DNA of 64,000 nucleotides from Elusimicrobiota bacterium (GTDB lineage Bacteria; Elusimicrobiota; UBA8919): the NCBI GenBank assembly GCA_003452965.1, contig DMMW01000002.1, forward strand, positions 43,975 to 107,974, written 5' to 3'. Below, one piece after another: positions 1,888 to 28,122 of the stretch. Each line of letters begins with the position of its first letter. Position 1 is the stretch's first letter. The notes under the pieces were generated by a model. The model was not told the origin of the DNA. It saw only the letters and a list, made by a program, of their open reading frames with translations, and made no database searches. The translations under genes and the position numbers were made by a program.

Positions 1888-1898
1888 TAGAAAATTCT

Positions 1899-3065
1899 AT
1901 GAATAAAGGTAAAAATAAGTTATTACTATTAATTGTAATTAACGTTTTAGTAGTAGTTATTGCAGTTCTATATTTTAATAGAGCATGGTTTTTTGAAGAT
2001 GATATAAGTTTAAATATTTTAGCTTCATTTACTACGGTAAGCCAAGTCGGGAAAGTAGAAGGTATAAGTCAAAACATAATAGGAGTGGATGGAAAAGAAG
2101 GGTTTTTATTACACGGCCGAAATATACCGTTAAAAAAAGGTAGTTATAAGGTAAGTTATAAAGTAAAATTGGTTGATATTGAAAATAATGATGATTCCGA
2201 AAAAAGTATAGGATATTGTAAAGTTAACTTGGCAAATGCACCTAAATATAATAAAAAAATAGAATTAAAAGCAAAGGATTTTTTACAAAAAAATCTTAAA
2301 AAAATAATTATAAATTTTACAGTACCCGAAGGTTACCCCTCAATAGAATTTCAGGTTTTTCAATTTTCTGGCAATAATTTATCAATAGAATCACTAAGAT
2401 TGAATTCAATTATCAGTGAACGTATTCCGTTAAGGACGAAAGAGGTTAAAAAAGCAGTTTTAAATATTATCGGTATGATAGTTTTAATTGCTTTTTTTTT
2501 ATTATTCATAATATTACGGTTCAAGAAGCTGGTATTTTTCATATTATTTATAATAATAGCCGAACTATGGTTTTTGAATATTGAACATTCGTCAGATATA
2601 TTAACTGGTTGTGCGATGTACAGTCCTATAGGGAAATTAGATTCGTTTATGCACATAAAGGCGAACGATACCAAAGAAGGATATCTTGCATATGGTCCGT
2701 ATCTTCCGTTAGAGAAGGGGAGATATAGGGTTAATTACAAAGTATTTTTAGATAATCTGGATAGTGGAGATGATATATCTCGCAAGGTAGGGTATTGTGA
2801 TATAGACATAGAGGGGCATCCTGAACTTAGGAAATTTAGTGAATTTACGGTAGGTAGTTTTAAGAAAAGGAATCCGCAGGAAGTGAGTTTAACATTTAGT
2901 GTGCCTGAAGGCATGCCCAAGACACAATATAGGGTATATCAATATGGTGGCAACAAATTAACGCTTTCGTCATTAAAGTTATACGATGTTGATATAACCA
3001 AGTACATCAGGACTCATTTAGACATATTATTAATTGCGATATTTATAACTATAATTTTTATATAA
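1899..3065 (+). CDS. membrane-anchored protein made of two tandem copies of an uncharacterised ~110-aa domain (TM-domain-TM-domain); ATG at 1899 chosen over overlapping upstream extension
   Basis: Two hydrophobic segments each followed by the repeat YGPY...GYC.IDIEGHP...FTVPEG.PK.QYRVYQ(Y/F)GGNNL; no recognisable catalytic motif. Confidence 0.5.
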   Translation: MNKGKNKLLLLIVINVLVVVIAVLYFNRAWFFEDDISLNILASFTTVSQVGKVEGISQNIIGVDGKEGFLLHGRNIPLKKGSYKVSYKVKLVDIENNDDSEKSIGYCKVNLANAPKYNKKIELKAKDFLQKNLKKIIINFTVPEGYPSIEFQVFQFSGNNLSIESLRLNSIISERIPLRTKEVKKAVLNIIGMIVLIAFFLLFIILRFKKLVFFILFIIIAELWFLNIEHSSDILTGCAMYSPIGKLDSFMHIKANDTKEGYLAYGPYLPLEKGRYRVNYKVFLDNLDSGDDISRKVGYCDIDIEGHPELRKFSEFTVGSFKKRNPQEVSLTFSVPEGMPKTQYRVYQYGGNKLTLSSLKLYDVDITKYIRTHLDILLIAIFITIIFI

Positions 3066-3091
3066 GTGTGATTGTTAAAAAACAACAATTA

Positions 3092-3106
3092 CTGATTACA
3101 CAGATT
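3092..3106 (-). repeat. junction motif, minus orientation (CTGATTACACAGATT), 12 nt before ATG 3119
   Basis: direct read of sequence. Confidence 0.8.
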
Positions 3107-3118
3107 AAATGGATAACA

Positions 3119-5476
3119 ATGAAGAAGATTAAAAGTATAATAATATTATCTGTAGTTATATTTTCAGCTGTTTTATATAGTATAGAGAAACAATGGTATG
3201 ACAAAGAGGGCCATATAAACATACTTAAGACTTGTGCTATGTACAGTCCGATAGGGACGGTTGGAGCAAACGGGCAGATAAAGGCGAACGGGATAGACGT
3301 AGGGTATTTGGCATATGGACCTTACGTACAGTTAAAGGCAGGCAAATATGCTATTAAGTATAAATTGATTTTAAATAATCTGAATATGGATGATGATAGT
3401 GGCAGGGTTGTAGGATATTGTGATGTGGATATAGAAGGTCATCCCGAGCCGGCGTATCATATTGATATGACTGTCGGTGATTTCAAGAAAAAGAATCCTA
3501 GAGAGGTAATGTTAAAGTTTACTGTGCCTGACGGGTTGCCGAAGGTACAGTTCAGGGTATATCAGTATTACGGGAATAATCATATGCTTTTAGGATTGAA
3601 GTTATATCCCAAGAGTTTATCATTATTAACAAGTTTATTAAAGAATAATTTTTTGACATATAATGTGATTTTATTTAGTACGATATTTTTCATATTTTTA
3701 TGCATATATTTTAAAATATGGAAGATATATAAATTGAAACTGTTTTTTAATAAATATAAATCTTTTAAGTTTGATGAATTAGAAGAGCATAATAATTCTG
3801 TTTCAATAAACTTCATTGTACAATTATGTATTATATCATTTTTTACTTTATTATCATTGAATGCTTTTTGGATGAACAGAATGGCTATTCCTGTAATTCC
3901 TTTATGGCAAACTGTATTCATAGCTATTGAAATATCAGTATTTGTGTTAATTATTAGAATATTTAATTTAAGATTGGATATTAAAAAATTTGATATATTT
4001 GATATTTCTTTATTCTTTTTAGTATTTCTGTTTATTTTTTATGTTTTAATAATGCCTTCAATACCCTCATTAATGCCAGTCAATTTCAGCAATGATTGTG
4101 TAACTCATTATTCATGGATGGACCATGTTTATAATAAAAGGACGCTTAATGGTTCGGAAATAGCATTTTATCCGTTCGGATATCATGTGACAACTGTAAT
4201 GTTATCAAAACTTACCGGTATCCCTGCGGTAAAAATGATGAGTATTTTATTGGCATTTGTCATAGCATTATCCACGGCTATTACATATGCTATTATAATA
4301 AGGGTTTTTAATTTTAAGAATGACGGTAAATTAGTTGCATTATTGCCGATATTTACATTTTTTTGGGTTAGAGGATATTATGATTTTGTGTTCAACAGGT
4401 TTTTTCATGGTTCTATGGTATTCAGTTATCTTTTTATGGTGTCGTTTTTTTGGGCTTTGATTGAATATAAAAATTATCCTAAATGGTTCAGTTATCTTTC
4501 GCTAAATTTATCAGCAATAGGGTTGGCTTATTCTTATACATCGTATTTGCCGATGTTGGTTATGCCTTTATTTTTAACGATTTTAATGGAAGATAATAGG
4601 AAATTTACCAGACGGCTTAAAGATTTATTGATTACTATATTGCCAGTTGTTATTTTAAGCATTATTCATTTGAAATCAAAAGGGACTTCCAATCTCGGTT
4701 TGGCTGTATTAAACCATGAAGGATATTGCATAAAATTTAATTTTATGAATTTCGGAGATTTTGGGAATAATGTTAAAGGCGGGTGGTTTTTAATTTTATC
4801 TTTAATTGGTATACCTGTAATAATATCAGGATTTAAGAAGAATATTGCTGTTATAAATTTTACTTTAAGTTTCTTATTGTACTTCTTTCTATTTTATATA
4901 TTAAAACATAATTTTGGAAAGTTTTCATATTATCAGGCGTATAAAATATTATATTTTTCTCCATATATAGCGGTTATTTATATTGCAGCAGTTTTATATT
5001 TTATTAGAAAACAATTGATTAAAATATTTAAACCATTTATTGGTGAAAAATTACATATAATATTATTTATTATATGGTTGTTGATTATTATTAATAAAGC
5101 TTCAATTGTTTATGATATGGAGAATTACAGACCTTGCTATCCAGAAATGTTGAAAGAATCGCATTATTTAACGATTGATTGGGCAAGGAAAAATATAAAA
5201 GAAAATTTTGATTACATATATCATCATCCAAATTTAGGCAACTGGATGCGGCACGGATTTATGAAGGATACTCTTAAAAATATAACACCCGATGAATATT
5301 ATTATCAAGTTTTTGTAATGCCTGTTCAAAAATTATCTGATTGGCTAAATAAGTCCAAAAAAGGAAGAATTGCTGTTGTGGATGATTTAAATACACCGCC
5401 ACTGACTGAGAAACAGAAAAGGCAGTTTGAAATATTATATCAAAAAGAAAATAGCGCAGTGATAAAAAAAATATGA
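3119..5476 (+). CDS. large polytopic membrane protein (about 14 predicted TM helices) with N-terminal copy of the same ~110-aa domain; possible glycosyltransferase/polymerase, function unknown
   Basis: N-terminus LKTCAMYSPIG..GYLAYGPYVQLKAGKYAIKYK..VGYCDVDIEGHP..FTVPDGLPKVQFRVYQYYGNNH repeats domain of previous gene; remainder strongly hydrophobic; start placed at MKKIKS after motif 3092-3106. Confidence 0.45.
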   Translation: MKKIKSIIILSVVIFSAVLYSIEKQWYDKEGHINILKTCAMYSPIGTVGANGQIKANGIDVGYLAYGPYVQLKAGKYAIKYKLILNNLNMDDDSGRVVGYCDVDIEGHPEPAYHIDMTVGDFKKKNPREVMLKFTVPDGLPKVQFRVYQYYGNNHMLLGLKLYPKSLSLLTSLLKNNFLTYNVILFSTIFFIFLCIYFKIWKIYKLKLFFNKYKSFKFDELEEHNNSVSINFIVQLCIISFFTLLSLNAFWMNRMAIPVIPLWQTVFIAIEISVFVLIIRIFNLRLDIKKFDIFDISLFFLVFLFIFYVLIMPSIPSLMPVNFSNDCVTHYSWMDHVYNKRTLNGSEIAFYPFGYHVTTVMLSKLTGIPAVKMMSILLAFVIALSTAITYAIIIRVFNFKNDGKLVALLPIFTFFWVRGYYDFVFNRFFHGSMVFSYLFMVSFFWALIEYKNYPKWFSYLSLNLSAIGLAYSYTSYLPMLVMPLFLTILMEDNRKFTRRLKDLLITILPVVILSIIHLKSKGTSNLGLAVLNHEGYCIKFNFMNFGDFGNNVKGGWFLILSLIGIPVIISGFKKNIAVINFTLSFLLYFFLFYILKHNFGKFSYYQAYKILYFSPYIAVIYIAAVLYFIRKQLIKIFKPFIGEKLHIILFIIWLLIIINKASIVYDMENYRPCYPEMLKESHYLTIDWARKNIKENFDYIYHHPNLGNWMRHGFMKDTLKNITPDEYYYQVFVMPVQKLSDWLNKSKKGRIAVVDDLNTPPLTEKQKRQFEILYQKENSAVIKKI

Positions 5477-6786
5477 AACATATGTCAATTTACCAGTTGC
5501 TTGGGAAAATTCCCAATCATATATGGGTTGCGGTAAGCAATTGGTGTAGCAGAATAATTATTGCAATGGTTCAGCTGGTAAGCATACGAATGCTTTTGGC
5601 TGGGTTTGGAAGCGAAAAATTCGCAGTTTTCGTGCTTTTGACGAGTTTAATAGGATGGTATTCTTTATCAGATATGGGAGTGGGCTTAAGTTTACAGAAT
5701 TATATATCGGAAAAAAGGTCACTGAATGAACCATATACGGATTATTTAAGTTCTGCTTTTGTAATTACTTTAGTTCTCTGGTGTTTAGGTATTTTCTTCC
5801 TTTTTTTAATAAGTCCGGTAATAGCTCCAATTTTTCTAAAACAATTTACTTTTATTAGCGACGCTGAGAAGATAAAATATTTTTTTATAATAGGATTCAT
5901 ATATTTTAGCGTAACTTTAAGTAGTACTACTTATAAAATATGGTATGCCGAGCAAAAGGGATATTTGGCTAACATAGTTCCCGCAATTGCATCTTTAATT
6001 GGTTTATTTGGTGTGTGGTATGTTTTAAAATTAGATGTAGAAAACAAATTGTTGATAGCATTAATTGCATTCACTTCACCGGCGATGATTTTAGGGGTAT
6101 TTTTTTTCTTTTTAAAAACCATTGTATTTTCAAAGTTAAGACTGCATAAAGATATATTTGTATTTAAGAATTTGGTGAATCGTGCTGGAAGATTTTTCTT
6201 TTTTGCGTTGATAGGATTATTTATTACACAGATTGATTATTTTGTTTTGTCACAGACAGTAAAAGCATATGATATAGTTATATATAATATTTCAAATAAA
6301 CTTTTTAGTTTTGCATTTTCAATATATGTTGCAGTTCTTACTGCATGGCATCCTGTAAATGCGGAGATGTATGTCAGAAATGAATTTTTCAATATTAGAA
6401 GATATGCAAAAACATATATAATTGCAGGGATATTAGGAATAATATTGTTTACCTTTGGATTTATGATATTTAAACAGAAAATAATAATGATTTTATCGCC
6501 CCAAGAAAACATAATCATACCTGTTGTATTTATATTATTGCTCGGTATTTATTTTGCAATAAGGATTTGGAATGATACTTTTGTTACATTGCTTGTTAGT
6601 ATGAATAAATTTCGTCATATATTTATTATTGCTCCGATTCAAATTGTAATTTCGGCTTTATTACAAATAACATTGGCATATAAATTCGGGATAAACGGTT
6701 TGATTGTTGGCTTGATAATTGCTTATCTTTCAACAAGCGCTTGGTTTTTACCGAAAGTATTCAAAAAACATGTTTTAATGGATTGA
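5473..6786 (+). CDS. wzx: MOP-superfamily polysaccharide flippase (Wzx-like)
   Basis: 437 aa, about 12 hydrophobic helices, Polysacc_synt-like N-terminus; ATGA overlap with upstream stop. Confidence 0.6.
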   Translation: MKHMSIYQLLGKIPNHIWVAVSNWCSRIIIAMVQLVSIRMLLAGFGSEKFAVFVLLTSLIGWYSLSDMGVGLSLQNYISEKRSLNEPYTDYLSSAFVITLVLWCLGIFFLFLISPVIAPIFLKQFTFISDAEKIKYFFIIGFIYFSVTLSSTTYKIWYAEQKGYLANIVPAIASLIGLFGVWYVLKLDVENKLLIALIAFTSPAMILGVFFFFLKTIVFSKLRLHKDIFVFKNLVNRAGRFFFFALIGLFITQIDYFVLSQTVKAYDIVIYNISNKLFSFAFSIYVAVLTAWHPVNAEMYVRNEFFNIRRYAKTYIIAGILGIILFTFGFMIFKQKIIMILSPQENIIIPVVFILLLGIYFAIRIWNDTFVTLLVSMNKFRHIFIIAPIQIVISALLQITLAYKFGINGLIVGLIIAYLSTSAWFLPKVFKKHVLMD

Positions 6787-11763: not shown

Positions 11764-11793
11764 TATTATTATTTTAAGTTGAATATCAAAATT

Positions 11794-14730
11794 ATGAAAA
11801 ATAAAAATATATTATTAATTATATTATCGCTTGTTTTGATAATAATTATTTCAACAATAATAGAATATAATCATTACAGGAAAACAACCACGGTAGACAT
11901 ATTGGGCATGAATATACCGATGTTTAGTGTAATAGGTAAGGTATCAGACAGCCGGATAATCACAGATGGAGAAAAGGAAGGGTATTTGGCATATGGTCCA
12001 TATATACCGTTAGACAAAGGAGAATATGAAGTAAAGTACAAAATAAAATTGAACAAGTCGAATCCGAATATAAGCAGCACAACATTAGTAGGATATTGTG
12101 ATATAGACATAGAAGGACATCCCCAACTTGGGTATCGTGCAGACTTAATAGTCAATAACTTTAAGAATATAAAAGAGAATGAAGTATCGCTTAGGTTTAC
12201 AGTACCTGGAGGTAAACCGAAAATACAATATAGAGTATATCAATATGGTGGCAATAATTTATCGTTAATAGGATTAAAATATTATCCAATAGGTTTAAGA
12301 GATTTTATAATAGATAAAGAAGGAAAATTGAATTTTAAAACAATTCATATATTTATAATAATATTTTTAGTATACATGTATATTAGGCTTATATTGAAAA
12401 CAAAGAAAAATAATCTAATCAAATATTTTATAATAAATACTATTACTATAGTCATTTCCGGATTGATAGTTGCCTTAATTTGGCAATATAAGAATTATTC
12501 GATACATAATTATACAGATTATTATGATATGTGGAAAGTATTTTATGCCCCATTATGGATGTCTCTTTTATTTATATTTTTTAATTTACTTTATTTAATT
12601 AACAATAGTTTTGGGTTTAATGTGCAAATCGAAAAATATCTTAGATATGATAGATATTCTTTAGTAATAATTCCGATATACATATTAGCAGAATTGTTTT
12701 ACAAAAATTTCAACACTCAATTTGTACTCGGTAATTTTTATCTAAGCACTTTGATAATCAAAGGGCTTATATATTTTTCTTTCCTTTGGCAAAATATAAA
12801 AGATAAAAATCAGATAGACAAATATCTGAAATGGAGTATAATTTTAAGTATTTTTACAATATATTTTTTAATTACTCCTTGGGTAAATGCCAGTTTTCAT
12901 AGCGATGGTGATGAGTCACTTTACTTATTACAGACGCAAAGTATAATAAAAGATTTAGATATAGATATAAAAAACAATGTGATACAAAATGATAGTATTT
13001 CTTATCATCCAAATTTACAATGGACTAAATGGCACGGGTCATACAGCAGACCTCTAACGTCATATATATTAATGCCGGGATTTTTACTATTAGGGCGGTT
13101 TGGTGCAACAATGACAATTAATCTGTTCGGTGCATTACTGGCAATTAATATATTATTATTGGCGTATTTATTTTCAAAATCAATAAAAGCAAGTTTTATT
13201 GCAATGATGGTAACTGTTTTTAGTTGTCCTGTCGGTATTTATTCATTTCTTGTATATCCAGAAATAATAGCGTCTTTAATTATGATATACTTAATAAGAA
13301 AAATATTATTAATTAATTTCGAATTGAATAATATAATAGTGCCAGTAATATTAATAATATCAATTATGTTATTAAAAGAAAGATATATTGTTTTGGTGTT
13401 GGCATTAAGTATTTTATTAATAATAAAAGTGGTAAAAAATACGAGAAGATTATTGTTAGTTACTTGTATGTTGATAATCGTATCAATTATATTTTTAATT
13501 TACGATAAAATTATTTGGGAAGGGGATATAGTCAAGAAAATAATGTTTCATTTTAGAAATTATAGTGATTATAGACAATTACTTATTGGCAGTTTAGGAT
13601 TATTGTTAGATCAAGAGAGCGGTTTATTGATTTATGCTCCATTTTATATCTTTAGTACTTTAGGAATGCTTAGTTTATTAAAATATAATAAAAAATATGG
13701 CTGGATGTTATTGTTATTATTTTCATTATACTATTTGACAATTCCTACAAGTGAATTCTGGGCAACATATGGTTCTCCAGCCTCAAGATATATAGTAGTT
13801 GTTATCCCGATATTATCAATAGCATTCAGTATTTATATTATTCATTTAAAAAAAATATTGTTAAAAATATTGACGATTTTTTTACTCGGATGGTCTTTTA
13901 TAATTTATTTTATACTTATCCTTATTCCACAATATAGGGTTCATAGCCCCAATTATGCAACCGGTAAAAATGAGTTACTGGATAGGTTGTATGCTACCGG
14001 ATTGTTCCCAAACTTGACACCATATTTTTCTTCATTCTTAAAAATATCGGATACAACTTATTATTTAATAGTTTTATTTGTGGTTGTATTTGTAGTGCTA
14101 CTAATTTATTATATTAAGCAGGAAAATATTACTGCGGAAACATATGACAAGAAAAAGGTATTAAAAATCACTGCGGTTATAGTTTGTATTATTGGTTTTT
14201 TGCTAGTATTCGCAGAAATCAGTTATTATAAATATCAGGTATTTGAAGTCGAAGATTATTATACCGGTGGTGGGACGATATGGCAAGAAGGTTTGATATA
14301 CAAAGGCAAAGGTTTTTTCTCACTTCTAAAAACATCATTAAGGAAAAATGAAGAAGTGAATGTAAAGATAATAGCAAAAGGTGATATATCTAAGAACTTA
14401 CCTGAAATTAGTGCTGAAACTGTTAATAATAAAGATAGAGAAAAAGTTGGAAAAACTATGATTGACAGCAGAGATTGGAAAGAATATGATATTTTATATA
14501 AATCAACGAAAGGTGATTTAAGTCCTTTTTGGTTTATTTACGATAATTATACTGAAGGTAAAGATGTTCTTATAGATAAAATTATATTTTCATCAATAGA
14601 AAAAAAGTCTTGGTTAGGATTTATAAATTATCAATTAGGCAAAATAGATAGACGTTTGGGTTTAATAGATTATGCACATATTAGATTTGAAAAAGCTGCA
14701 AAATTAGGATATAAAATTGAAAAAAAATAA
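11794..14730 (+). CDS. large polytopic membrane protein with N-terminal ~110-aa repeat domain and C-terminal soluble domain; tentatively GT-C-fold glycosyltransferase (ArnT/PMT-like)
   Basis: N-terminal EGYLAYGPYIPLDKGEYEVKYK..VGYCDIDIEGHP..FTVPGGKPKIQYRVYQYGGNNLSL; about 16 hydrophobic helices; loop motif DGDESLYLL reminiscent of DE..Y motif of GT-C enzymes. Confidence 0.4.
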   Translation: MKNKNILLIILSLVLIIIISTIIEYNHYRKTTTVDILGMNIPMFSVIGKVSDSRIITDGEKEGYLAYGPYIPLDKGEYEVKYKIKLNKSNPNISSTTLVGYCDIDIEGHPQLGYRADLIVNNFKNIKENEVSLRFTVPGGKPKIQYRVYQYGGNNLSLIGLKYYPIGLRDFIIDKEGKLNFKTIHIFIIIFLVYMYIRLILKTKKNNLIKYFIINTITIVISGLIVALIWQYKNYSIHNYTDYYDMWKVFYAPLWMSLLFIFFNLLYLINNSFGFNVQIEKYLRYDRYSLVIIPIYILAELFYKNFNTQFVLGNFYLSTLIIKGLIYFSFLWQNIKDKNQIDKYLKWSIILSIFTIYFLITPWVNASFHSDGDESLYLLQTQSIIKDLDIDIKNNVIQNDSISYHPNLQWTKWHGSYSRPLTSYILMPGFLLLGRFGATMTINLFGALLAINILLLAYLFSKSIKASFIAMMVTVFSCPVGIYSFLVYPEIIASLIMIYLIRKILLINFELNNIIVPVILIISIMLLKERYIVLVLALSILLIIKVVKNTRRLLLVTCMLIIVSIIFLIYDKIIWEGDIVKKIMFHFRNYSDYRQLLIGSLGLLLDQESGLLIYAPFYIFSTLGMLSLLKYNKKYGWMLLLLFSLYYLTIPTSEFWATYGSPASRYIVVVIPILSIAFSIYIIHLKKILLKILTIFLLGWSFIIYFILILIPQYRVHSPNYATGKNELLDRLYATGLFPNLTPYFSSFLKISDTTYYLIVLFVVVFVVLLIYYIKQENITAETYDKKKVLKITAVIVCIIGFLLVFAEISYYKYQVFEVEDYYTGGGTIWQEGLIYKGKGFFSLLKTSLRKNEEVNVKIIAKGDISKNLPEISAETVNNKDREKVGKTMIDSRDWKEYDILYKSTKGDLSPFWFIYDNYTEGKDVLIDKIIFSSIEKKSWLGFINYQLGKIDRRLGLIDYAHIRFEKAAKLGYKIEKK

Positions 14731-14766: not shown

Positions 14767-17546
<2,780 letters not shown>

Positions 17547-17550
<4 letters not shown>

Positions 17551-19742
17551 ATACAGGTTGGATAAAATTAATTTGCACAATCGGACCAAGCTCTTCAAAT
17601 CCATACGTTTTGAGGCGTATGAAACAACTTGGAGTAAGTTTATTACGTATTAATATGTCGCACACTTCAATAGAACAATTGGATAAAGCAGTAAAATCTA
17701 TAAGGGCTGCGACAGATATTCCTATTTGCATAGATACTGAAGGCGCGCAGATTAGAACAGGTAAAGTTGTAAATAATAACTTAGAATTAAAACAAGGTGC
17801 GATTATAGAGTTAACCAAAAAAAATATTATTGGTGATTCTCAAATATTAACTCTTACACCGGACAGTATTTTTAATCAAATAAAAATAGGCACTATGCTA
17901 TTTTTAGATTTCAACAAAGTCACGATATTGATTGTTGATACTACTGAGACAGGTAGTTTTTTAGCAAAAGTTATGCAAACAGGGATAATCGGCAGTAATA
18001 AAGCTGTTAATATAGATAAAGATATTGATTTACCGAGTATTACAAAAAAGGATTTGAAAGCTATTCAGTACGCTAATAAAAATAATATAGATATTTTCGC
18101 CTTATCTTTTTCTAAAGGAAAAGAAGCAATAAAACGTTTAAGATCGCTTGCGAAAAGGAATGCGACAATTATATCCAAGGTAGAAAGTTGTAAAGGTATA
18201 AATAATATAAATGACATAATACAATATTCGGATGCTATTTTAATAGACAGGGGTGATCTTTCCAGAGAAAAACCTGTAGAGAAAATCCCTGCATTACAAA
18301 AGATGATTATTACTAAAGCACATCAAAAACCTATTCCTGTATATGTTGCAACAAATCTACTTGAATCCATGGTAACCAATCCTTTCCCTTCAAGAGCAGA
18401 AATAAATGATATAGCTAATACTTTGGCAGACGGAGCAAATGGATTAGTTCTTGCTGCAGAAACTGCAATCGGTAAATATCCTGTTCAATGTGTAAACATG
18501 GTAGGAAAAATGATAAAACAATACAATTCTGAAATTGCAGAAATTGCAAAGTTAGGAATTTCGTGGAAGGGTATAGATTTGATAAATAATACCAGGTTGC
18601 CGCATGGCTATAGCTCTGATGATTATAGGATAAGTTTAAAAACATTTAAAAAGAAAAAAAATAGACAAAGTATATCTATCAATTCTTTTGCAATTAGTGA
18701 TATAAATAATATAACGAACGGATGTTACTCGCCGTTAACAGGTTTTATGACAAAAGAAGAAACAGATTGTGTGCTTGATTATTATTCTTTACCTAATGGT
18801 ATTATATGGCCGATGCCTATAGTTTTGCAAACTTCATTAAATAAGATTAATATGGGTATAGGCGAAACTGTAGCATTAGTTGATAGGTATAGCAATAAAC
18901 GTGTAAGTTATATAACTATAAGTGATATATATAAATTAGATAAAAAAGATATTTCAAAAAGATGGTTCAAGACCGATAGTTTGAAGCATCCTGGGGTAAA
19001 AAGGATATTTAATGGCGGTGATTATTTTATAGGCGGTGAGATTAGTCAAGAGGAAGTATATTATAAAATGTCTCCGGAATATTGTTTAACTCCTTCACAA
19101 GTAAGAGCTATATTTGCAAATAGAGGTTGGGATAGAGTTGTAGGGTTTCATACCCGTAATATACCTCATCGTGCCCATGAATATATTCAGATGAAAGCAA
19201 TGGAAAAAGTAGATGCCGATGGTTTATTTATACATCCGGCAATCGGTGAAAAAAAGAGCGGAGATTTTACAATTGATGCAATAATAGAAAGTTATAAAGC
19301 GTATATTGATGCTGCCGGTTTAAGCAGTAAAACCTTGTTAAGCGGTTTTTTGGCGAATAGTTGGTATTCAGGGCCTAGAGAAGCGGTTTTTACGGCTATT
19401 TGCCGTAAAAACTACGGTTGTTCGCATTTTGTCATCGGCAGAGACCATACAGGTGTTGCAGATTTTTACAAGCCGAGTGAAATACATGATTTATTTGATA
19501 AGTTGGGAGATATTGGTATTAAACCTATTTTTTTTGATACGGTTGTTTACGATAGTAAGAAGAAAGCTTATGAAGAAATACCTTTTGAAAAAATATCCAA
19601 AAAATATAAAAAAATATCAGGAACAAAAGTAAGAGATTTACTATCCGAAAGGAAATCTCCGCCAGTATGGATGGTTAGAGAAGAAGTGAGTAAACAACTT
19701 CTGAAAAGCATATCTAAAGGAAAGAATATATTAGTTAAATGA
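17547..19742 (+). CDS. sat: fusion protein: N-terminal pyruvate-kinase-like catalytic domain (about 350 aa, no C-terminal regulatory domain) + C-terminal sulfate adenylyltransferase (ATP sulfurylase, Sat)
   Basis: PK motifs KLICTIGP, RINMSHT, ICIDTEGAQIRTG, ISKVESCKG, LIDRGDLS, NLLESM..NPFPSRAEINDIAN..AAETAIGKYP; Sat motifs CYSPLTGF, GFHTRNIPHRAHE, VIGRDHTGV; single uninterrupted 731-aa ORF. Confidence 0.75.
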
Positions 19743-20269
19743 AAAATGGATTAATTGTGTGGTTAACGGGTTTATCCGGTTCCGGAAAAAGTACTATTGC
19801 AAATATAGCAGTCAAAAAACTAAAAAAAGCAAATATAAAGTCGGAAATAATAGATGGTGATGCCGTAAGAAGTCTAACTACAAAACACTTGAAGTTTTCC
19901 AAATCTGATATATCAGAGAATAATAGAATAATTTCGGATGTTTGTGAAGAAAAAAGAAAATATTTGGATGTGGTTATTGTAACGGTTATAGCACCGTTTA
20001 AAGAAATAAGAAAAGAAATCAGGGATAGATTCGGTAAGTTATACAAAGAAGTGTATGTAAAAGCTTCATTAGATACTGTAATTAAAAGAGATCCGAAAAA
20101 CTTATATGAAAAAGCTAGGCAGGGTCTGATAAAAAATATGATAGGTTTTTCTAAAAGTGTTCCATATGAAGCACCTGATAATCCGGATCTTATATTAGAT
20201 ACCGAGAGAAAAGAAGCGGATGAATTAGCATTAGATTTAAAAAAATTTGTAACGGACAGTATTGATTAG
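19739..20269 (+). CDS. cysC: adenylyl-sulfate (APS) kinase
   Basis: P-loop GLSGSGKST, IDGDAVR, LKFSKSDISENNRIIS, RDPKNLYEKA. Confidence 0.85.
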   Translation: MKNGLIVWLTGLSGSGKSTIANIAVKKLKKANIKSEIIDGDAVRSLTTKHLKFSKSDISENNRIISDVCEEKRKYLDVVIVTVIAPFKEIRKEIRDRFGKLYKEVYVKASLDTVIKRDPKNLYEKARQGLIKNMIGFSKSVPYEAPDNPDLILDTERKEADELALDLKKFVTDSID

Positions 20270-22589: not shown

Positions 22590-23492
22590 ATGGGATTAGT
22601 GAATGCAGAAGCAAAGATTTTATTAAAAGAATGTCATAAAGAATTAGAAATTGACAAATGCAATTTTAACGGAGCAAAGGCGATTGTTATAGGAACGGTT
22701 GATTATTACGTTGATTACAAATTACTTAAGAAATATGGATTTACTAATAAAGAAGAACATGAAATTCATAAGAAGCTGCCTGTGAATACAAACGAATGGT
22801 ATAATAGTAATAAAAAACTTTGTTCAAATTTTTTTAAACATTTTGGATATGATGATTATAAGGAAATAGATATTAATGAGCGGGCAGATATAAAAATAGA
22901 TTTAAATTATCCTATACCGGAAAATCTGAAAGGGCAATTTGATATTGTTTGGGATCATGGTTCGGTAGAACATATAATGAATATATGCCAGGCAATGAAT
23001 AATTTGGTGGATTTAGTAAAAGTTGGCGGTATAATTTTACATAGTCAGGGGACAGGTGACCAAACCAATGCCGGGTATTGGACGATATCTCCTAATTATT
23101 ATTTAGATTTTTATAAAGCAAATGGTTTTGAAATTAAAAAAATAATACTTCGTGATCGTAGAGGGCATTATGTTAAATATAGTGAAGTCAAAACAAAAAA
23201 TTCAACCATAGGCAGTTTAATTCCATTTTATTTATTGCCAAGTTTTCATCTTCGTCTTTTAAGAGATGATATAGTTTCAGGTATTTTTATTAAGTTTCCA
23301 TTTTTAAATTATGTGTATAACGGTTTAAACAGGCGTGTTCCGAAAATTGCAGGTGTTATTAATTTTATATTAGGCAGGAGTGCCACCGGTGGTGCCGATT
23401 GGTGCATTATGGTTATTGCCAAAAAAATAAAAGAAATTTCAAATAAAAGTTATGAGATACAAAATATATACCGTTCATCAAAAGCTATTTAG
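22590..23492 (+). CDS. putative SAM-dependent methyltransferase
   Basis: DIVWDHGSVEHIMN...LVKVGGIIL block (Methyltransf_11/23-like); RBS gaggag. Confidence 0.35.
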   Translation: MGLVNAEAKILLKECHKELEIDKCNFNGAKAIVIGTVDYYVDYKLLKKYGFTNKEEHEIHKKLPVNTNEWYNSNKKLCSNFFKHFGYDDYKEIDINERADIKIDLNYPIPENLKGQFDIVWDHGSVEHIMNICQAMNNLVDLVKVGGIILHSQGTGDQTNAGYWTISPNYYLDFYKANGFEIKKIILRDRRGHYVKYSEVKTKNSTIGSLIPFYLLPSFHLRLLRDDIVSGIFIKFPFLNYVYNGLNRRVPKIAGVINFILGRSATGGADWCIMVIAKKIKEISNKSYEIQNIYRSSKAI

Positions 23493-23515
23493 TGAAGCTA
23501 TTTGCGGAGTTATTT

Positions 23516-25060
23516 ATGAAAAAAAGTATTACTAAAGGCACAATAGATAAAATCGTTAAATTGAATGATTTATCTAAGATAATAAATAATCTAAAATCAA
23601 AAAATAAATCCGTAGTGCATTGTCACGGTGTTTTTGATTTAGTACATCCAGGTCATATTAAACATTTGGAGTCGGCTAAAAGAGAAGGAGATATTTTGGT
23701 TGTTACTATTACTCCTGACAAATACGTCAACAAAGGTCCCGGACGCCCGATTTTTAACGAGCAATTGCGAGCTGAGACGCTCGCTGCATTGCAGTGTGTG
23801 GATTATGTATCGATAAATAAGTGGCCAATAGCAATAGAAACAATTAAATTGTTGAAACCCAATATTTATGTGAAAGGCAAGGAATATGCTAATCAGAATA
23901 ATGATTTAACAGGCAAGATAGTTGACGAAGAACAGGCAATAGTAGATGTTGGCGGTAGGATACATTTTACTGACGACATTACGTTTAGTTCTTCAAGTTT
24001 AATAAATTCTAATTTTAGTATATATCCGGTTGAGACACAAGAATGGCTTAAAGAATTCCGTTCAAAATATTCAATAGAAGATATCTTGGCTTATTTGAAT
24101 AAGGCATCTGATATTAAATCTTTGGTTATAGGCGAAGCTATTGTAGACGAATATGTTTTTTGCGATGGTTTAGGCAAATCAAATAAAGATCCTATTTTAG
24201 CTTTTAAATACCATTATACTGAAAAATATGCCGGCGGGAGTTTGGCGGTTGCCAATCATTTAGCAGGTTTTTGTTCAAATGTTGGAATCTTGGCATTACT
24301 GGGAGATACAGAACGCGAAGAAGAGTTTATAAAAAGTAAATTATTATCCAATGTCCATCCGTATTTACTCAATCAAAACAACGCCCCGACTATACATAAA
24401 AGAAGGTTTGTGGACACGCATACAAATGCCAGGATGTTTGAAATTTACATTATGGACGATTTGCCGATAAGGCATGATAATGAAGACAGGTTATTAAAAA
24501 CACTGTCAAAAATTGTGAACAACTATGATTTGATAATTGTTACGGATTATGGGCATGGTATGATGACACCTTCTGTTATAAAATTATTATCAAAATCAAA
24601 ACCTTTTTTAGCGGTGAATACCCAGACCAATGCAGGGAATAGGGGTTTTAATACAATTTCCAAATATCCGAGAGCCGATTATGTTTGTTTAGCAGGTCAT
24701 GAAGTTGCGCTTGAAACACGTATGAGGCACGCAGGGTTCAAGGATTTGATGTTAGAAGTCAGTACACGTATCAAATGTTCAAATTTTACCGTTACTCACG
24801 GAAAAGACGGTACTTTGCATTATTCGCCAAAAATAGGATTTACCGAAGTACCGGCGTTGGCTTCCAAAATTACTGACCGTGTGGGAGCCGGTGATGCTGT
24901 TTTAGCAATTACTTCCTTATTAGCCATGCAGAAAGCCTCCTGGGATATCGTCGGTTTCGTCGGCAATGTTGCAGGTGCAGAAATGGTTGCGGAATTGGGT
25001 AATCGTATTTCTTTAAATAAAGTGAATCTATCAAAGCATATAACGGCTTTATTGAAATAA
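23516..25060 (+). CDS. bifunctional sugar-phosphate nucleotidyltransferase (N-terminal) / PfkB-family sugar kinase (C-terminal); HldE/RfaE-like with reversed domain order
   Basis: HCHGVFDLVHPGHIKHLE (HxGH nucleotidyltransferase) at N-terminus; C-terminal TDRVGAGDAVLAIT PfkB signature; RBS ggag before ATG 23516. Confidence 0.65.
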   Translation: MKKSITKGTIDKIVKLNDLSKIINNLKSKNKSVVHCHGVFDLVHPGHIKHLESAKREGDILVVTITPDKYVNKGPGRPIFNEQLRAETLAALQCVDYVSINKWPIAIETIKLLKPNIYVKGKEYANQNNDLTGKIVDEEQAIVDVGGRIHFTDDITFSSSSLINSNFSIYPVETQEWLKEFRSKYSIEDILAYLNKASDIKSLVIGEAIVDEYVFCDGLGKSNKDPILAFKYHYTEKYAGGSLAVANHLAGFCSNVGILALLGDTEREEEFIKSKLLSNVHPYLLNQNNAPTIHKRRFVDTHTNARMFEIYIMDDLPIRHDNEDRLLKTLSKIVNNYDLIIVTDYGHGMMTPSVIKLLSKSKPFLAVNTQTNAGNRGFNTISKYPRADYVCLAGHEVALETRMRHAGFKDLMLEVSTRIKCSNFTVTHGKDGTLHYSPKIGFTEVPALASKITDRVGAGDAVLAITSLLAMQKASWDIVGFVGNVAGAEMVAELGNRISLNKVNLSKHITALLK

Positions 25061-26120: not shown

Positions 26121-26975
26121 ATGAAAAAAAAATTACAAGGGAACAAAATAGAGGAATTAGAAAAAATTGCTAAAAGAGTAAGAAGCATGATTTTGGCAAT
26201 GGCTTATTATGCTGGCGGTGCTCATATTGCTCCTGCTTTTTCTATTGCTGATATTATTACCGTATTATATACCGAGATATTGAATTTCAGTAGAAAAAAC
26301 GTTAATTCCGAAGAACGTGACCGTTTAATTTTAAGCAAAGGACATGCATGTACAGTGCTATATGCCATACTGGCAGAACAAGGATTTATCAAAAAAGAAA
26401 TATTAAAGAAATATTGTAAAATAGACGGTATTATAGGCGGACATCCTAATATACATGAATTACCCGGTATAGAAGCTACAACCGGTTCGCTAGGTCACGG
26501 ATTTTCTATTGCTTGCGGTGTTGCATTTGCGGGTAAATTAAAAAAAAATAAATATAAGGTTTATACAATTTTAGGTGACGGGGAAAGTCAGGAAGGAACA
26601 ATCTGGGAAGCATCAATGTTTGCAGGTAACCGGAAACTTGATAACTTGATTGCTATCGTTGATTCTAATAAATTACAAGGTATGGGGAAAACTAACGAAA
26701 TTAATAGTTTGGAGCCATTTGCTGAAAAATGGAGAAGCTTTAATTGGAGCGTTAAGGAAATTAACGGTAATAGTATTTCGGAAATATTAAAAGCATTAAA
26801 AAATGTTCCATTTACTAAAAATAAACCAAGTGTTATCATTGCTAATACAATAAAAGGCAAAGGAGTATCTTTTATGGAAGATAAAGCGATATGGCACTAT
26901 AGATTACCAAATAATGAAGAAATGAAAGTCGCCTGTAAAGAACTGAATATTGAAGATATCGAAAAAGTATTATGA
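26121..26975 (+). CDS. transketolase, N-terminal (TPP-binding) subunit of a split transketolase
   Basis: SKGHACTVLYAIL, GGHP, GSLGHGFSIACG, LGDGESQEG, NLIAIVDSNKLQ. Confidence 0.8.
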   Translation: MKKKLQGNKIEELEKIAKRVRSMILAMAYYAGGAHIAPAFSIADIITVLYTEILNFSRKNVNSEERDRLILSKGHACTVLYAILAEQGFIKKEILKKYCKIDGIIGGHPNIHELPGIEATTGSLGHGFSIACGVAFAGKLKKNKYKVYTILGDGESQEGTIWEASMFAGNRKLDNLIAIVDSNKLQGMGKTNEINSLEPFAEKWRSFNWSVKEINGNSISEILKALKNVPFTKNKPSVIIANTIKGKGVSFMEDKAIWHYRLPNNEEMKVACKELNIEDIEKVL

Positions 26976-27204: not shown

Positions 27205-28122
27205 ATGAGAAATGCATTTGTTAGCGAATTAACTGATATATCTAAAGATCCGAAAATATTTACTTTATTGGCTGATAACGGCATAATCGTTTTTGACGAT
27301 TATATAAAACTTTATCCAAAACAATTTTTGAATGTAGGTATTGCGGAATCAAATATGATTGGTGTTGCAGCCGGAATGGCAATGTGCGGTTTCATACCTT
27401 TCGTTTATACTATAATTCCATTTTTAACAATGAGGCCTTTTGAATATATTAGAAACGATATATGCAAGCAGAACCAAAATGTTAAATTAATCGGTATAGG
27501 TGCGGGTTTTAATTACAGTACTCTTGGTCCTACGCATCATGGTACGGAAGACATTTCTATTATGCGGTGTTTACCTAATTTAACGGTATTATCTCCGGCA
27601 GACCCGTTAGAAACGAGAAAAGCTACAATGGCAGCTTACAAAATGAAAGGACCGGTTTATATACGAATAGGGACGGGAAAGAATCCTTCTGTATATAAAA
27701 ACGATTATGAATTTGTCATAGGAAAAGGTATTGTACTTAATGATGGCGATGATGTTACTATTATTTCAACGGGTTTCATAATTCAAGAAACGCAATTAGC
27801 TATAGATGAATTGAAAAAATCTGGAATTTCAGTTAGATTGATAAATATTCATACAATTAAACCTATTGATGAAGAAATAATATTAAAAGCATGCCGGGAA
27901 ACGAAAGCGATTTTAACAGTTGAAGAACATTCTGTTATTGGCGGGCTTGGAAGCGCGGTCGCGGAAGTGATTTTAGAAAAATGCCAGAAACCGATTAAAT
28001 TTAAACGGCTTGGTTTAAATGGTGTATTTGCTTCGGGTTATGGAAATATTCTGGAAATGAGACAATTGAATGGCCTGAGTAAAGATGATATAATTCGTGA
28101 GGCTAAAATATTAGTAAGATAA
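27205..28122 (+). CDS. transketolase, C-terminal (pyrimidine-binding) subunit
   Basis: FLNVGIAESNMIGVAAGMA, GPTHHGTEDISIMRCLPN. Confidence 0.8.
   Translation: MRNAFVSELTDISKDPKIFTLLADNGIIVFDDYIKLYPKQFLNVGIAESNMIGVAAGMAMCGFIPFVYTIIPFLTMRPFEYIRNDICKQNQNVKLIGIGAGFNYSTLGPTHHGTEDISIMRCLPNLTVLSPADPLETRKATMAAYKMKGPVYIRIGTGKNPSVYKNDYEFVIGKGIVLNDGDDVTIISTGFIIQETQLAIDELKKSGISVRLINIHTIKPIDEEIILKACRETKAILTVEEHSVIGGLGSAVAEVILEKCQKPIKFKRLGLNGVFASGYGNILEMRQLNGLSKDDIIREAKILVR

Follow-up and report, generated by a model that had tools for sequence, protein, structure and literature searches.

On the forward strand of the window, the whole 64-kb stretch of Elusimicrobiota DNA analyzed here, positions 17547-19742 form a single open reading frame (ORF) of 731 amino acids with a GTG start, a TGA stop, and zero internal stops. 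Pfam orders the domains of the encoded protein as a pyruvate kinase (PK) A+B barrel, a PUA-like domain, and an ATP-sulfurylase (Sat) catalytic domain, and the AF2 model has a mean pLDDT of 85.3. A first-pass annotation of this DNA had described a complete PK-type barrel ahead of a complete ATP sulfurylase in one ORF. That structural reading is right: the ORF is unbroken, Pfam places PF00224 in the N-terminal half and PUA_2 and ATP-sulfurylase in the C-terminal half, and all of the motifs quoted in the annotation are found in the translation.

Both neighboring genes lie on the forward strand and overlap the fusion gene, in agreement with the coupling that had been proposed for them. The upstream gene, which encodes a 277-aa sulfotransferase (16717-17550; Pfam Sulfotransfer_1, E 1.2e-11, aa 26-265), runs 4 nt into the fusion gene, so that its stop codon and the GTG start share the sequence GTGA. 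Downstream, the ATG of a 176-aa APS kinase, CysC (19739-20269; Pfam APS_kinase, E 1.5e-42; TIGR00455, 166.9 bits against a cutoff of 138.7), overlaps the TGA stop of the fusion by 4 nt (ATGA); APS kinase in the window is thus a separate ORF and not part of the Sat polypeptide. The fusion gene sits within a long cell-surface glycan cluster. Genes for PAPS/APS reductase and sulfite reductase are absent from its neighborhood in the window, and an Rfam scan of the window returned zero RNA families.

The PK half spans aa 7-333 (17565-18545, forward strand) and comprises the A domain, a TIM barrel, and the B or cap domain, as judged from Pfam, phmmer searches of the PDB, conservation in 119 relatives, and Foldseek. 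The cap domain was placed at aa 72-165 (17760-18041, forward strand) by alignment to E. coli PykF and the Geobacillus stearothermophilus PK, and is beta-rich in the AF2 model. PF00224 matches aa 7-316 over positions 5-328 of a 328-position profile (E 6.5e-73, 246 bits), PKs in the PDB are matched over the A and B domains only, at about 33% identity (E ~1e-57 to 1e-52), and Foldseek aligns the AF2 model to PKs with an rmsd of 2.3-2.8 Å; the TIGR01064 score of 288.2 is under the cutoff of 306.4. The allosteric C-terminal domain is missing, as had been noted: Pfam gives zero matches to PK_C (PF02887) in the 731-aa protein, and the PK match ends at aa 316-333, after which the Sat half begins. The catalytic residues are R34, N36, S38, H39, D63, T64, R70, K152, K211, E213, D237, and T269. 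The positions equivalent to rabbit R72, N74, S76, D112, T113, R119, K206, K269, E271, D295, and T327 are all kept, including the nucleotide-phosphate ligand in the B domain, K152 (rabbit K206).

The Sat half consists of the PUA-like N-terminal domain of ATP sulfurylase at aa 367-500 (18645-19046, forward strand; Pfam PUA_2, E 9.3e-35), aligned to 8a8d and 1v47, and the catalytic domain at aa 511-720 (19077-19706, forward strand; Pfam, E 1.1e-68). Its best PDB match is 8a8d (E 3e-80), and Foldseek gives TM scores of 0.88-0.91 to 8a8d and 1v47. Four motifs, HTRNIPHRAHE (a variant of QxRN plus HxxH), HPAIGEKKSGD, GPREA, and GRDHTG, are conserved across the family. Within them, HxxH (as HRAH) and the RN pair are kept, the Gln of QxRN is His (HTRN) in 119 of 119 relatives, and GRDHAG has become GRDHTG; the TIGR00339 score of 299.3 is under the cutoff of 322.95. 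From these motifs and the CysC and sulfotransferase context, we infer that this half converts ATP and sulfate to APS and PPi.

Between the halves, aa 334-372 (18546-18662, forward strand) form an inter-domain linker together with the first residues of the Sat half, recognizable in the sequence by weak conservation (mean pairwise identity of the linker in the family, 0.20) and in the model by pLDDT below 50 at aa 334-348 and aa 357-372. The linker holds PHG (aa 352-354), a remnant of the PHGG motif of the Sat N-terminus, and an A-rich run at 18648-18662 that is in frame and codes for KKKK (aa 367-370). An indel error in assembly or sequencing could in principle have fused two genes at such a homopolymer-rich stretch, and one low-coverage contig (L085, 2.5x) does depart right after the A-run, giving rise to a spurious PK+OmpA protein (P0014). 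Against an error of this kind, contig L082, from an independent metagenome assembly, matches at 99.5% identity and has an identical A-run, an Elusimicrobia orthologue (L001) that is 82% identical has the same 731-aa ORF, and the ORF is unbroken in all of more than 100 relatives, whose linkers are unrelated in sequence. The stop or frameshift that the first-pass annotation considered in the A-rich linker, splitting the gene in two, was therefore not found, and a merged two-gene artifact is excluded, with only a vanishing residual probability, because the same sequence occurs in an independent contig and the architecture is unbroken in 119 relatives and 80 genome loci. The PK+OmpA protein was considered as an alternative architecture and rejected because its low-coverage contig is a chimera, with the break at the A-run.

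Relatives with the same architecture are widespread. Among the best 120, 119 are full-length proteins with 41-99% identity, all carrying PK, PUA_2, and ATP-sulfurylase without interruption. A search of genome contigs returned 80 loci, all unbroken, when the family alignment was the query and zero when a single protein was used, and species-level genomes with the full-length architecture number at least 80 and represent more than 12 phyla, which answers in the negative the earlier question of whether it is lineage-specific. Cultured carriers include Sinorhizobium (S. saheli LMG 7837), Mesorhizobium (M. amorphae CCBAU 01570), Halobacteriovorax (sp. HLS), and Salsipaludibacter (S. albus AS10), and a plasmid collection contains two full-length matches on rhizobial chromids. 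Database names of family members are generic, either 'pyruvate kinase' or 'sulfate adenylyltransferase'. A full-text literature search turned up no paper describing a fusion of PK to Sat or to CysC, and a Nitrospinota genomics paper containing all of the relevant terms does not mention the fusion. The earlier remark that no PK-Sat fusion is known thus agrees with the literature search, but the architecture itself is common and filed under generic names.

The genomic context of these relatives was drawn from 75 genome loci. APS kinase is immediately downstream in 25 of 70 related loci, a sulfotransferase is immediately upstream in about 18 of 66, and the remaining neighbors are nucleotide-sugar and glycan genes. 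PAPS reductase and sulfite reductase are both missing from the 25 most frequent Pfam families per neighbor set (239 neighboring ORFs). About half of the related loci have no APS kinase within 8 kb, and at one locus PK-Sat is followed by a second gene encoding Sat-CysC.

Residue conservation was assessed in 119 aligned full-length relatives that share only about 45% identity. Invariant or near-invariant positions of the PK half, in PykF numbering, are R32, N34, S36, H37, D66, T67, R73, K156, K220, E222, R244, G245, D246, T278, and E314. Mean pairwise identity is 0.51 in the PK half versus 0.54 in the Sat catalytic domain, and columns conserved at 95% or more number 65 of 324 in the former versus 51 of 220 in the latter. 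Catalytic residues are intact in both halves, apart from the changes in QxRN and GRDHAG of the Sat half described above, and both halves are under purifying selection.

These observations bear on whether the PK half is a catalyst or a non-catalytic regulatory or scaffold domain that senses PEP or adenylate status or drives oligomerization. Degenerate kinase domains on ATP sulfurylases have precedent: fungal ATP sulfurylase ends in an APS-kinase-like domain that is a degenerate allosteric or regulatory module, and fungal enzymes (1i2d, 1m8p) are among the matches of the Sat half. A PK without its C domain also lacks the usual tetramer interface, and the residues that determine the K+ site have changed. 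Pseudoenzymes normally lose their catalytic residues, however, and here the catalytic Lys, Glu, Asp, and Thr and both Arg are kept in 118-119 of 119 relatives across more than 12 phyla, in a PK half whose conservation equals that of the Sat catalytic domain. A regulatory or scaffold role is accordingly considered improbable. A decaying pseudo-kinase was set aside as a leading view on the same invariance of catalytic residues and the same level of conservation.

Although the direct ligands are kept, the PK half departs from canonical PKs in a fixed set of positions, and it is best described, on its sequence features, as a distinct subfamily and not a generic PK. The subfamily signature reads DTEGxQIR, DRGDLS(R/K), ATN, and LAAET, and is represented in the window protein by E65, Q68, D234, S239, R240, N270, A303, and A304. 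In rabbit numbering, the changes K114 to E, E117 to Q, A292 to D, G297 to S, I298 to R or K, Q328 to N, S361 to A, and G362 to A are present in 116-119 of 119 relatives; those near the active site are A to D before RGD, Q to N after the catalytic Thr, and SG to AA before the catalytic Glu. Two of them concern the K+ site, where the family determinants are T113/E114/Q117/T120, with E114 and Q117 in 119 of 119 aligned relatives and likewise in about 128 representative clusters. Characterized PK cation signatures are T113/K114/E117/T120 in K+-dependent enzymes and L113/Q114/K117/(L,I,V)120 in K+-independent enzymes (PMC8835810, PMC4374775), and the family pattern matches neither. The earlier claim that PEP, K+, and Mg2+ ligand positions are retained stands for the direct ligands, with the correction that the two residues governing K+ dependence (rabbit K114 and E117) are changed. 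With a fixed variant K+ site and the other signature changes, neither the kinetics nor the cation dependence of canonical PKs can be taken for granted, and substrate or cation preference may differ from that of canonical PKs.

The same subfamily also occurs outside PK-Sat proteins. When the PK half was searched against 1.84 billion representatives, about 128 top clusters shared the signature and canonical PKs appeared only after them. The majority architecture among these clusters is PK+PUA_2+Sat, and others are triple fusions of PK, Sat, and APS kinase (P0194, P0201, P0225) or fusions of PK and APS kinase without Sat (P0177, P0206), one of which, P0206, is present as a full-length gene within a sulfotransferase and glycan cluster on each of two independent contigs. 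PK+CBS and PK+unknown-domain members also occur, outside obvious PAPS contexts, and stand-alone members adjoin unrelated genes (Wzt, GFO_IDH_MocA, DapB) on short contigs. That the subfamily is repeatedly found together with Sat, CysC, and sulfotransferases is a direct observation.

An active PK half might nevertheless catalyze a different reaction, in which PEP serves to phosphorylate something other than ADP, for example a different nucleotide of the sulfation cycle, or in which altered cation or substrate specificity makes it something other than a simple ATP regenerator. The signature changes surrounding the active site would fit such an enzyme, as would the members outside PAPS contexts and the roughly half of loci where sulfotransferases occur but no APS kinase is close by. 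Yet all known residues binding PEP, Mg2+, K+, and the phosphate and ribose of ADP are kept, as is the nucleotide-capping B domain, and we know of no PK-fold enzyme that uses a nucleoside monophosphate or a ribose 3'-OH as its phosphate acceptor. The subfamily is moreover fused to genuine APS kinases and hence is no replacement for them; PK acting in place of APS kinase was judged unlikely on this ground. A different reaction is overall an unlikely explanation, somewhat less so than a regulatory domain.

Nor does a general glycolytic PK, joined to Sat by an incidental fusion with no functional coupling, account well for the distribution. Many members are named simply 'pyruvate kinase' in databases, and the 64-kb window contains no second PK, as would be compatible with a housekeeping role. 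The subfamily is found almost only in sulfation and glycan clusters, however, repeatedly fused to Sat, CysC, or both; the regulatory C domain of glycolytic PKs is missing; and the fusion occurs in rhizobia, which possess a canonical pyk. We regard a glycolytic role as very improbable.

PAPS is the universal sulfate donor. Making it runs uphill thermodynamically and is readily inhibited by its products. The reading that we favor, and to which we assign a probability of roughly 55%, is that the fusion is a two-enzyme sulfation protein that serves PAPS synthesis specifically, using PEP to regenerate ATP and remove ADP. The C-terminal half would act as a working ATP sulfurylase (ATP + sulfate to APS + PPi) and the N-terminal half as a working, unregulated PK of a specialized subfamily (PEP + ADP to pyruvate + ATP). 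With the APS kinase encoded by the overlapping gene (APS + ATP to PAPS + ADP), PK-Sat would form a PAPS-making module supplying the adjacent sulfotransferase for decoration of surface glycans. As APS kinase releases ADP, the PK half would convert it directly to ATP and spend PEP in doing so, for a predicted net reaction of ATP + PEP + sulfate to PAPS + PPi + pyruvate. Removal of ADP would prevent the dead-end complex of APS kinase, ADP, and APS, would keep the local ATP/ADP ratio high, and would let an unfavorable pathway draw on the large free-energy drop of PEP. PK activity, the use of ADP and PEP as substrates, a physical or kinetic coupling with CysC, and a physiological benefit are all inferred from sequence and gene arrangement.

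Comparative support for this reading comes from the fusion of CysC to the PK subfamily; CysC is the only ADP producer of the pathway, and for this reason a PK-CysC fusion would be expected if ADP is recycled. Unless PK and PEP regenerate ATP, PAPS synthesis in vitro comes close to failing, owing to a dead-end complex of ADP and APS on APS kinase (PMC9885120). The PEP-driven regeneration suggested in the first-pass annotation thus has the best comparative support, from fusions of the PK subfamily to CysC and to Sat plus CysC, although it would recycle only one of the two ATP consumed per PAPS. The annotation's other suggestion, a pull on the sulfurylase equilibrium, can apply only indirectly because Sat releases PPi and APS, not ADP.

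Several observations count against regeneration. The usual partner of PK is Sat, a producer of PPi and not of ADP, rather than CysC, and the loci without APS kinase within 8 kb make up about half of the total. The K+ site is of neither characterized type, with invariant changes near the active site, and stand-alone members lie next to unrelated genes. Simple regeneration also gives no account of the locus at which PK-Sat precedes Sat-CysC.

Known systems offer partial parallels. Bifunctional Sat/APS kinases (Aquifex aeolicus 2gks; the metazoan PAPS synthases PAPSS1/2) likewise fuse Sat to an enzyme of the PAPS pathway and co-locate consecutive steps; 2gks aligns to the Sat half at E 5.5e-55, and relatives such as P0194 add a C-terminal APS kinase. 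In the window protein, by contrast, the partner is an N-terminal PK barrel that would regenerate energy instead of performing a pathway step, with APS kinase on a separate overlapping gene. In CysDN/NodPQ, unfavorable APS formation is driven by GTP hydrolysis on CysN, a second high-energy phosphate, and the system resembles the proposed one in this respect and in its frequent fusion to APS kinase (CysNC); NCBIfam PRK05506 (CysNC) is among the matches of the window CysC. The CysDN sulfurylase fold is unrelated, however (CysD is a PAPS-reductase-like ATP pyrophosphatase), and its coupling is mechanistic, through a GTPase switch, whereas PK-Sat pairs a Sat-type enzyme with a PEP-dependent kinase proposed to act via the ADP/ATP pool. 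Canonical PKs (E. coli PykF 1pky, G. stearothermophilus 2e28, rabbit M1 1a49) share the A+B fold and all catalytic and ligand residues with the PK half, which differs by lacking the C-terminal allosteric and tetramerization domain and by its fixed K114E/E117Q, DRGDLS(R/K), ATN, and LAAET. Fungal ATP sulfurylases (Penicillium 1i2d/1m8p) also carry an extra kinase-fold domain and align to the Sat half at E ~1e-45, but the PK half of the window protein keeps its full catalytic set. Unlike assimilatory sulfate-reduction operons (cysDN/sat-cysC-cysH-cysIJ), PK-Sat is surrounded by sulfotransferases and glycan genes, with reductases found neither near it in the window nor among the most frequent neighbor families of related loci. 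In-vitro PAPS systems with PK and PEP are identical in proposed chemistry and purpose, with ADP removed, dead-end inhibition relieved, and PAPS yield raised (PMC9885120), and differ as engineered mixes of separate commercial enzymes from one natural polypeptide, with PK-CysC and PK-Sat-CysC among its relatives.

A stronger version of the favored reading is tentative, and we hold it at less than even odds: that the PK subfamily without a C domain is a dedicated, physically coupled PEP energy module of bacterial PAPS synthases, in which ADP would pass from APS kinase to the PK and ATP on to Sat and CysC inside one complex. It would represent a third natural drive for sulfate activation, beside PPi hydrolysis and the CysN GTPase, and would make PAPS supply for surface-glycan sulfation independent of cell energy charge. 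In a bolder variant, the altered PK active site may accept a nucleotide of the sulfation cycle other than ADP.

Because of their generic labels, these proteins can lead reconstructions of uncultured lineages (Omnitrophota, Elusimicrobia, Nitrospinota, and Planctomycetota, for example) to call glycolysis or dissimilatory sulfur metabolism wrongly. If the favored reading is true, a third cation-site class of pyruvate kinases would be defined, and PK-Sat, PK-CysC, and PK-Sat-CysC would be candidate ready-made catalysts for enzymatic heparin- and chondroitin-type sulfation. PEP coupling would join the known drives of sulfate activation, namely the pull by pyrophosphatase, the CysN GTPase, and Sat-CysC fusion, and bacteria would have evolved the enzymologists' in-vitro fix of PK and PEP as a single polypeptide, spread over more than 12 phyla.

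The fusion gene is a single ORF at 17547-19742 (+), which starts at GTG and runs for 731 codons uninterrupted by any stop. Pfam places a pyruvate kinase (PK) barrel at aa 7-316 (E 6.5e-73, covering profile positions 5-328 of 328, the whole profile), a PUA_2 domain at aa 367-500, and an ATP sulfurylase (Sat) catalytic domain at aa 511-720, and it detects no PK_C domain in the ORF. These assignments uphold the first-pass annotation in describing an uninterrupted frame and a PK part that is complete save for its C-terminal domain. Both pyruvate kinase and sulfate adenylyltransferase NCBIfam models match the ORF strongly, all below their cutoffs, as fits two incomplete or divergent halves in one chain. 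An AlphaFold2 model built from the family alignment is confident in both halves (mean pLDDT 85.3) and shows disorder where they join, at aa 334-372. In Foldseek searches, ATP sulfurylases (TM 0.88-0.91) and pyruvate kinases matched this model separately, and no single solved structure among the 50 best matches listed spanned both halves.

A frameshift in the A-rich linker, suggested earlier as a way in which two separate genes might appear as one, was not found. The A-run at 18648-18662 encodes KKKK in frame, and the A-run recurs unchanged in L082, a JGI metagenome contig of independent origin that matches the entire gene at 99.5% identity. The closest genome relative, Elusimicrobia bacterium RIFOXYD2_FULL_34_15, also carries a 731-aa ORF (82% aa identity), flanked by sulfotransferase and APS kinase genes. 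Among the 120 best database matches, all 119 full-length relatives share the PK, PUA_2, and ATP sulfurylase architecture at 41-99% identity and lengths of ∼710-765 aa, with inter-domain linkers unrelated in sequence to one another. An assembly artefact is therefore rejected, and the fusion is real. The sole exception among the 120, protein P0014, was considered as an alternative PK+OmpA architecture and rejected as chimeric. Its contig (L085:1-6007, 2.5x coverage) is 99.6% identical to window 16498-18661 and diverges past base 18661, where the A-run ends; because agreement ends at that base, P0014 is attributed to a chimeric assembly, which probably arose at the homopolymer-rich stretch.

By fold and catalytic residues, the N-terminal half belongs to the PK superfamily, and its alignment with pyruvate kinases of solved structure is confined to the A and B domains (E ∼1e-57 to 1e-52, ∼33% identity). 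When the 119 family members were aligned with E. coli PykF and Geobacillus stearothermophilus PK, the catalytic and ligand residues R32, N34, S36, H37, D66, T67, R73, K156, K220, E222, R244, G245, D246, T278, and E314 (PykF numbering) were invariant or nearly so. Other positions, close to the active site, differ invariably from canonical PKs: G38 to T; K68 to E and E71 to Q (rabbit K114 and E117); A243 to D, G248 to S, and V249 to R/K (DRGDLSR); Q279 to N (ATN); and S312/G313 to AA (LAAET). Residue 117, together with 113, 114, and 120, determines the K+ dependence of PKs, with T/K/E/T in K+-dependent and L/Q/K/(L,I,V) in K+-independent enzymes (PMC8835810, PMC4374775). The fusion has T/E/Q/T at positions 113/114/117/120, which falls in neither published class, so its cation behavior is not predictable. 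Two features that define classical pyruvate kinases are thus missing from the PK half: the allosteric C-terminal domain and a cation signature of either known type. Mean pairwise identity within the family is 0.51 for the PK half, 0.54 for the Sat catalytic domain, and 0.20 for the linker; conservation of the PK half as strong as that of the Sat domain points to purifying selection on it as an enzyme.

Fold and motifs assign the C-terminal half, which has one variant residue, to the Sat family, and the solved structures nearest to it are ATP sulfurylases from Methanothermococcus thermolithotrophicus (8a8d, E 3e-80) and Thermus (1v47). The family retains the N-terminal PHGG motif immediately behind the linker (PHGY in the window protein), as well as HxxH, HPxxGxKKxGD, GPREA, and GRDH(T)G, the last corresponding to the GRDHAG motif and reading GRDHTG at 19443-19460 (aa 633-638). 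The only fixed oddity lies within 19149-19181 (aa 535-545), where the sulfate-contacting Gln of the QxRN motif is replaced by His (HTRN) in 119 of 119 members.

The translational coupling noted in the first pass agrees with gene overlaps at both junctions: the stop of the upstream Sulfotransfer_1 gene (16717-17550) overlaps the GTG of the fusion (GTGA), and the ATG of the downstream APS kinase gene (CysC; 19739-20269, above the TIGR00455 cutoff) overlaps its stop (ATGA). The AT-rich window (G+C ∼30% over 64 kb) is a surface-glycan cluster encoded nearly all on the plus strand, with family 2 and family 4 glycosyltransferases, sugar epimerases and dehydratases, UDP-galactopyranose mutase, several methyltransferases, a Wzx-type flippase, and a radical-SAM enzyme. 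Among its 55 ORFs of 150 aa or longer, 54 lie on the plus strand, GC skew is positive in all 2-kb bins, and no Rfam family reached its gathering score across 1-64000. Elsewhere in the cluster, a 522-aa protein (23492-25060, +) has a cytidylyltransferase-like domain (aa 45-140) followed by a PfkB sugar-kinase domain (aa 209-508), the opposite of the order in classical HldE. A split transketolase-like pair (26121-26975, Transketolase_N; 27205-28122, Transket_pyr and Transketolase_C; both +) suggests an unusual sugar-modifying step. Five plus-strand ORFs in the cluster (1722-3065, 3068-5476, 5473-6786, 11779-14730, and 14767-15801) have no significant Pfam match, and two of them are large (802 and 983 aa).

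Similar surroundings recur among relatives. Across 75 genome loci, counting same-strand adjacent genes, APS kinase lies directly downstream in 25/70 and a sulfotransferase directly upstream in ∼18/66, and second neighbors include epimerases, aminotransferases, glycosyltransferases, methyltransferases, and more sulfotransferases. In Halobacteriovorax sp. HLS, Sulfotransfer_3, the fusion, and APS kinase follow in that order within an LPS/capsule-type cluster. At about half of the loci, no gene for APS kinase lies closer than 8 kb. For each neighbor set at these 75 loci, the list of the 25 commonest families contains neither PAPS reductase nor sulfite reductase. Such neighborhoods place the family in PAPS-dependent sulfation and outside sulfur assimilation and dissimilation.

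The question raised earlier, whether the architecture is lineage-specific, was answered in the negative by a database search. With the family alignment as query, a scan that sampled each species by a single genome gave 513 confirmed relatives, a count that does not imply fusion throughout because one of the two scan patterns was Sat-specific; the fusion was present in all 80 loci examined, giving at least 80 full-length loci. These span Elusimicrobia, Omnitrophota, Planctomycetota, Deltaproteobacteria, Bdellovibrionota, Chloroflexota, Nitrospinota, Alphaproteobacteria, Actinomycetota, Verrucomicrobiota, Gemmatimonadota, Cytophagia, Calditrichaceae, and Methylococcaceae, and the fusion is known from cultured bacteria such as Sinorhizobium saheli LMG 7837, Mesorhizobium amorphae, M. 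album, and Salsipaludibacter albus, as well as from Halobacteriovorax sp. HLS.

With nothing but the PK half as query, an exhaustive phmmer search against 1.84 billion representatives returned ∼128 top clusters (385 down to ∼217 bits), all bearing a signature of E/Q, DRGD, ATN, and LAAET; only below them do canonical PKs (KPE or QPK, ARGDLG, ATQ, SG) begin, and a crude neighbor-joining tree separates every signature protein from canonical PKs. Most members of this subfamily are PK+PUA_2+Sat proteins. Others add APS kinase to that arrangement (P0194, 918 aa; P0201; P0225), join PK to APS kinase without Sat (P0177, P0206) or to CBS (P0158), or carry a C-terminal region without Pfam assignment (P0148, P0149, P0153, P0180, P0236), which in the first four spans 150-300 aa. 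The P0206 gene is complete on two independent contigs (L086:3070-4671 and L087:1805-3406), within a glycan cluster that also encodes a sulfotransferase. Approximately 25 clusters are short stand-alone PKs (324-376 aa), among them P0122, P0132 (L089:832-1908), and P0155 (L088:89-1132), complete genes for ∼350-aa proteins on short contigs. Their respective neighbors encode a Wzt-type ABC ATPase, DapB, and a GFO_IDH_MocA oxidoreductase.

In the proposed scheme, the Sat half would convert ATP and sulfate to APS and PPi, CysC would convert APS and ATP to PAPS and ADP, and the PK half would use PEP to return that ADP to ATP with release of pyruvate, for a predicted net reaction of ATP + PEP + SO4 → PAPS + PPi + pyruvate. 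By reaction balance, the original proposal of PEP-driven regeneration of the ATP used by both enzymes can thus apply only to the CysC-derived ADP, one of the two ATP spent, and not to both. The Sat equilibrium is very unfavorable (Keq ∼1e-8) and the PK reaction strongly exergonic (∼-31 kJ/mol), so PK would make the overall pathway much more favorable and free it from dependence on the ADP/ATP ratio in the cell. In vitro, PAPS synthesis by PAPSS1 nearly stops without PK/PEP regeneration as ADP builds up, owing to a dead-end complex of ADP and APS on APS kinase (PMC9885120). PK-CysC and PK-Sat-CysC fusions within one PK subfamily are exactly as a regeneration model predicts. Against it stands that PK is more often joined to Sat, which releases PPi, than to CysC, as does the lack of a nearby APS kinase at about half of the loci. 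At one locus (L084:10001-14018; ENA ERZ26166453 contig_2), a second gene encoding a bifunctional Sat-APS kinase (PUA_2+ATP-sulfurylase+APS_kinase, 585 aa) lies 20 nt downstream of the fusion, an operon with two ATP sulfurylase domains for which a simple regeneration scheme offers no explanation.

Full-text literature searches found no published description of the PK-Sat fusion, which is abundant in sequence databases; it is not categorically new. The proposed chemistry would be of an expected kind: the fusion may be a natural counterpart of the PK/PEP systems that regenerate ATP in enzymatic PAPS synthesis, and it appears analogous in purpose to the CysN GTPase, Sat-CysC fusions, and pyrophosphatase in pulling sulfate activation. 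Database entries label these proteins "pyruvate kinase", "ATP sulfurylase", or "sulfate adenylyltransferase" (e.g., P0030, P0072, P0074, P0106, P0116, and P0118), labels that could misguide metabolic reconstructions of MAGs with respect to glycolysis or dissimilatory sulfur metabolism. The family would be useful for biocatalysis, PK cation-site biology, and MAG annotation, and the surprise for specialists in sulfation and PKs is a dedicated, widespread PK subfamily, devoid of the C-terminal domain, that appears wired into PAPS synthesis.
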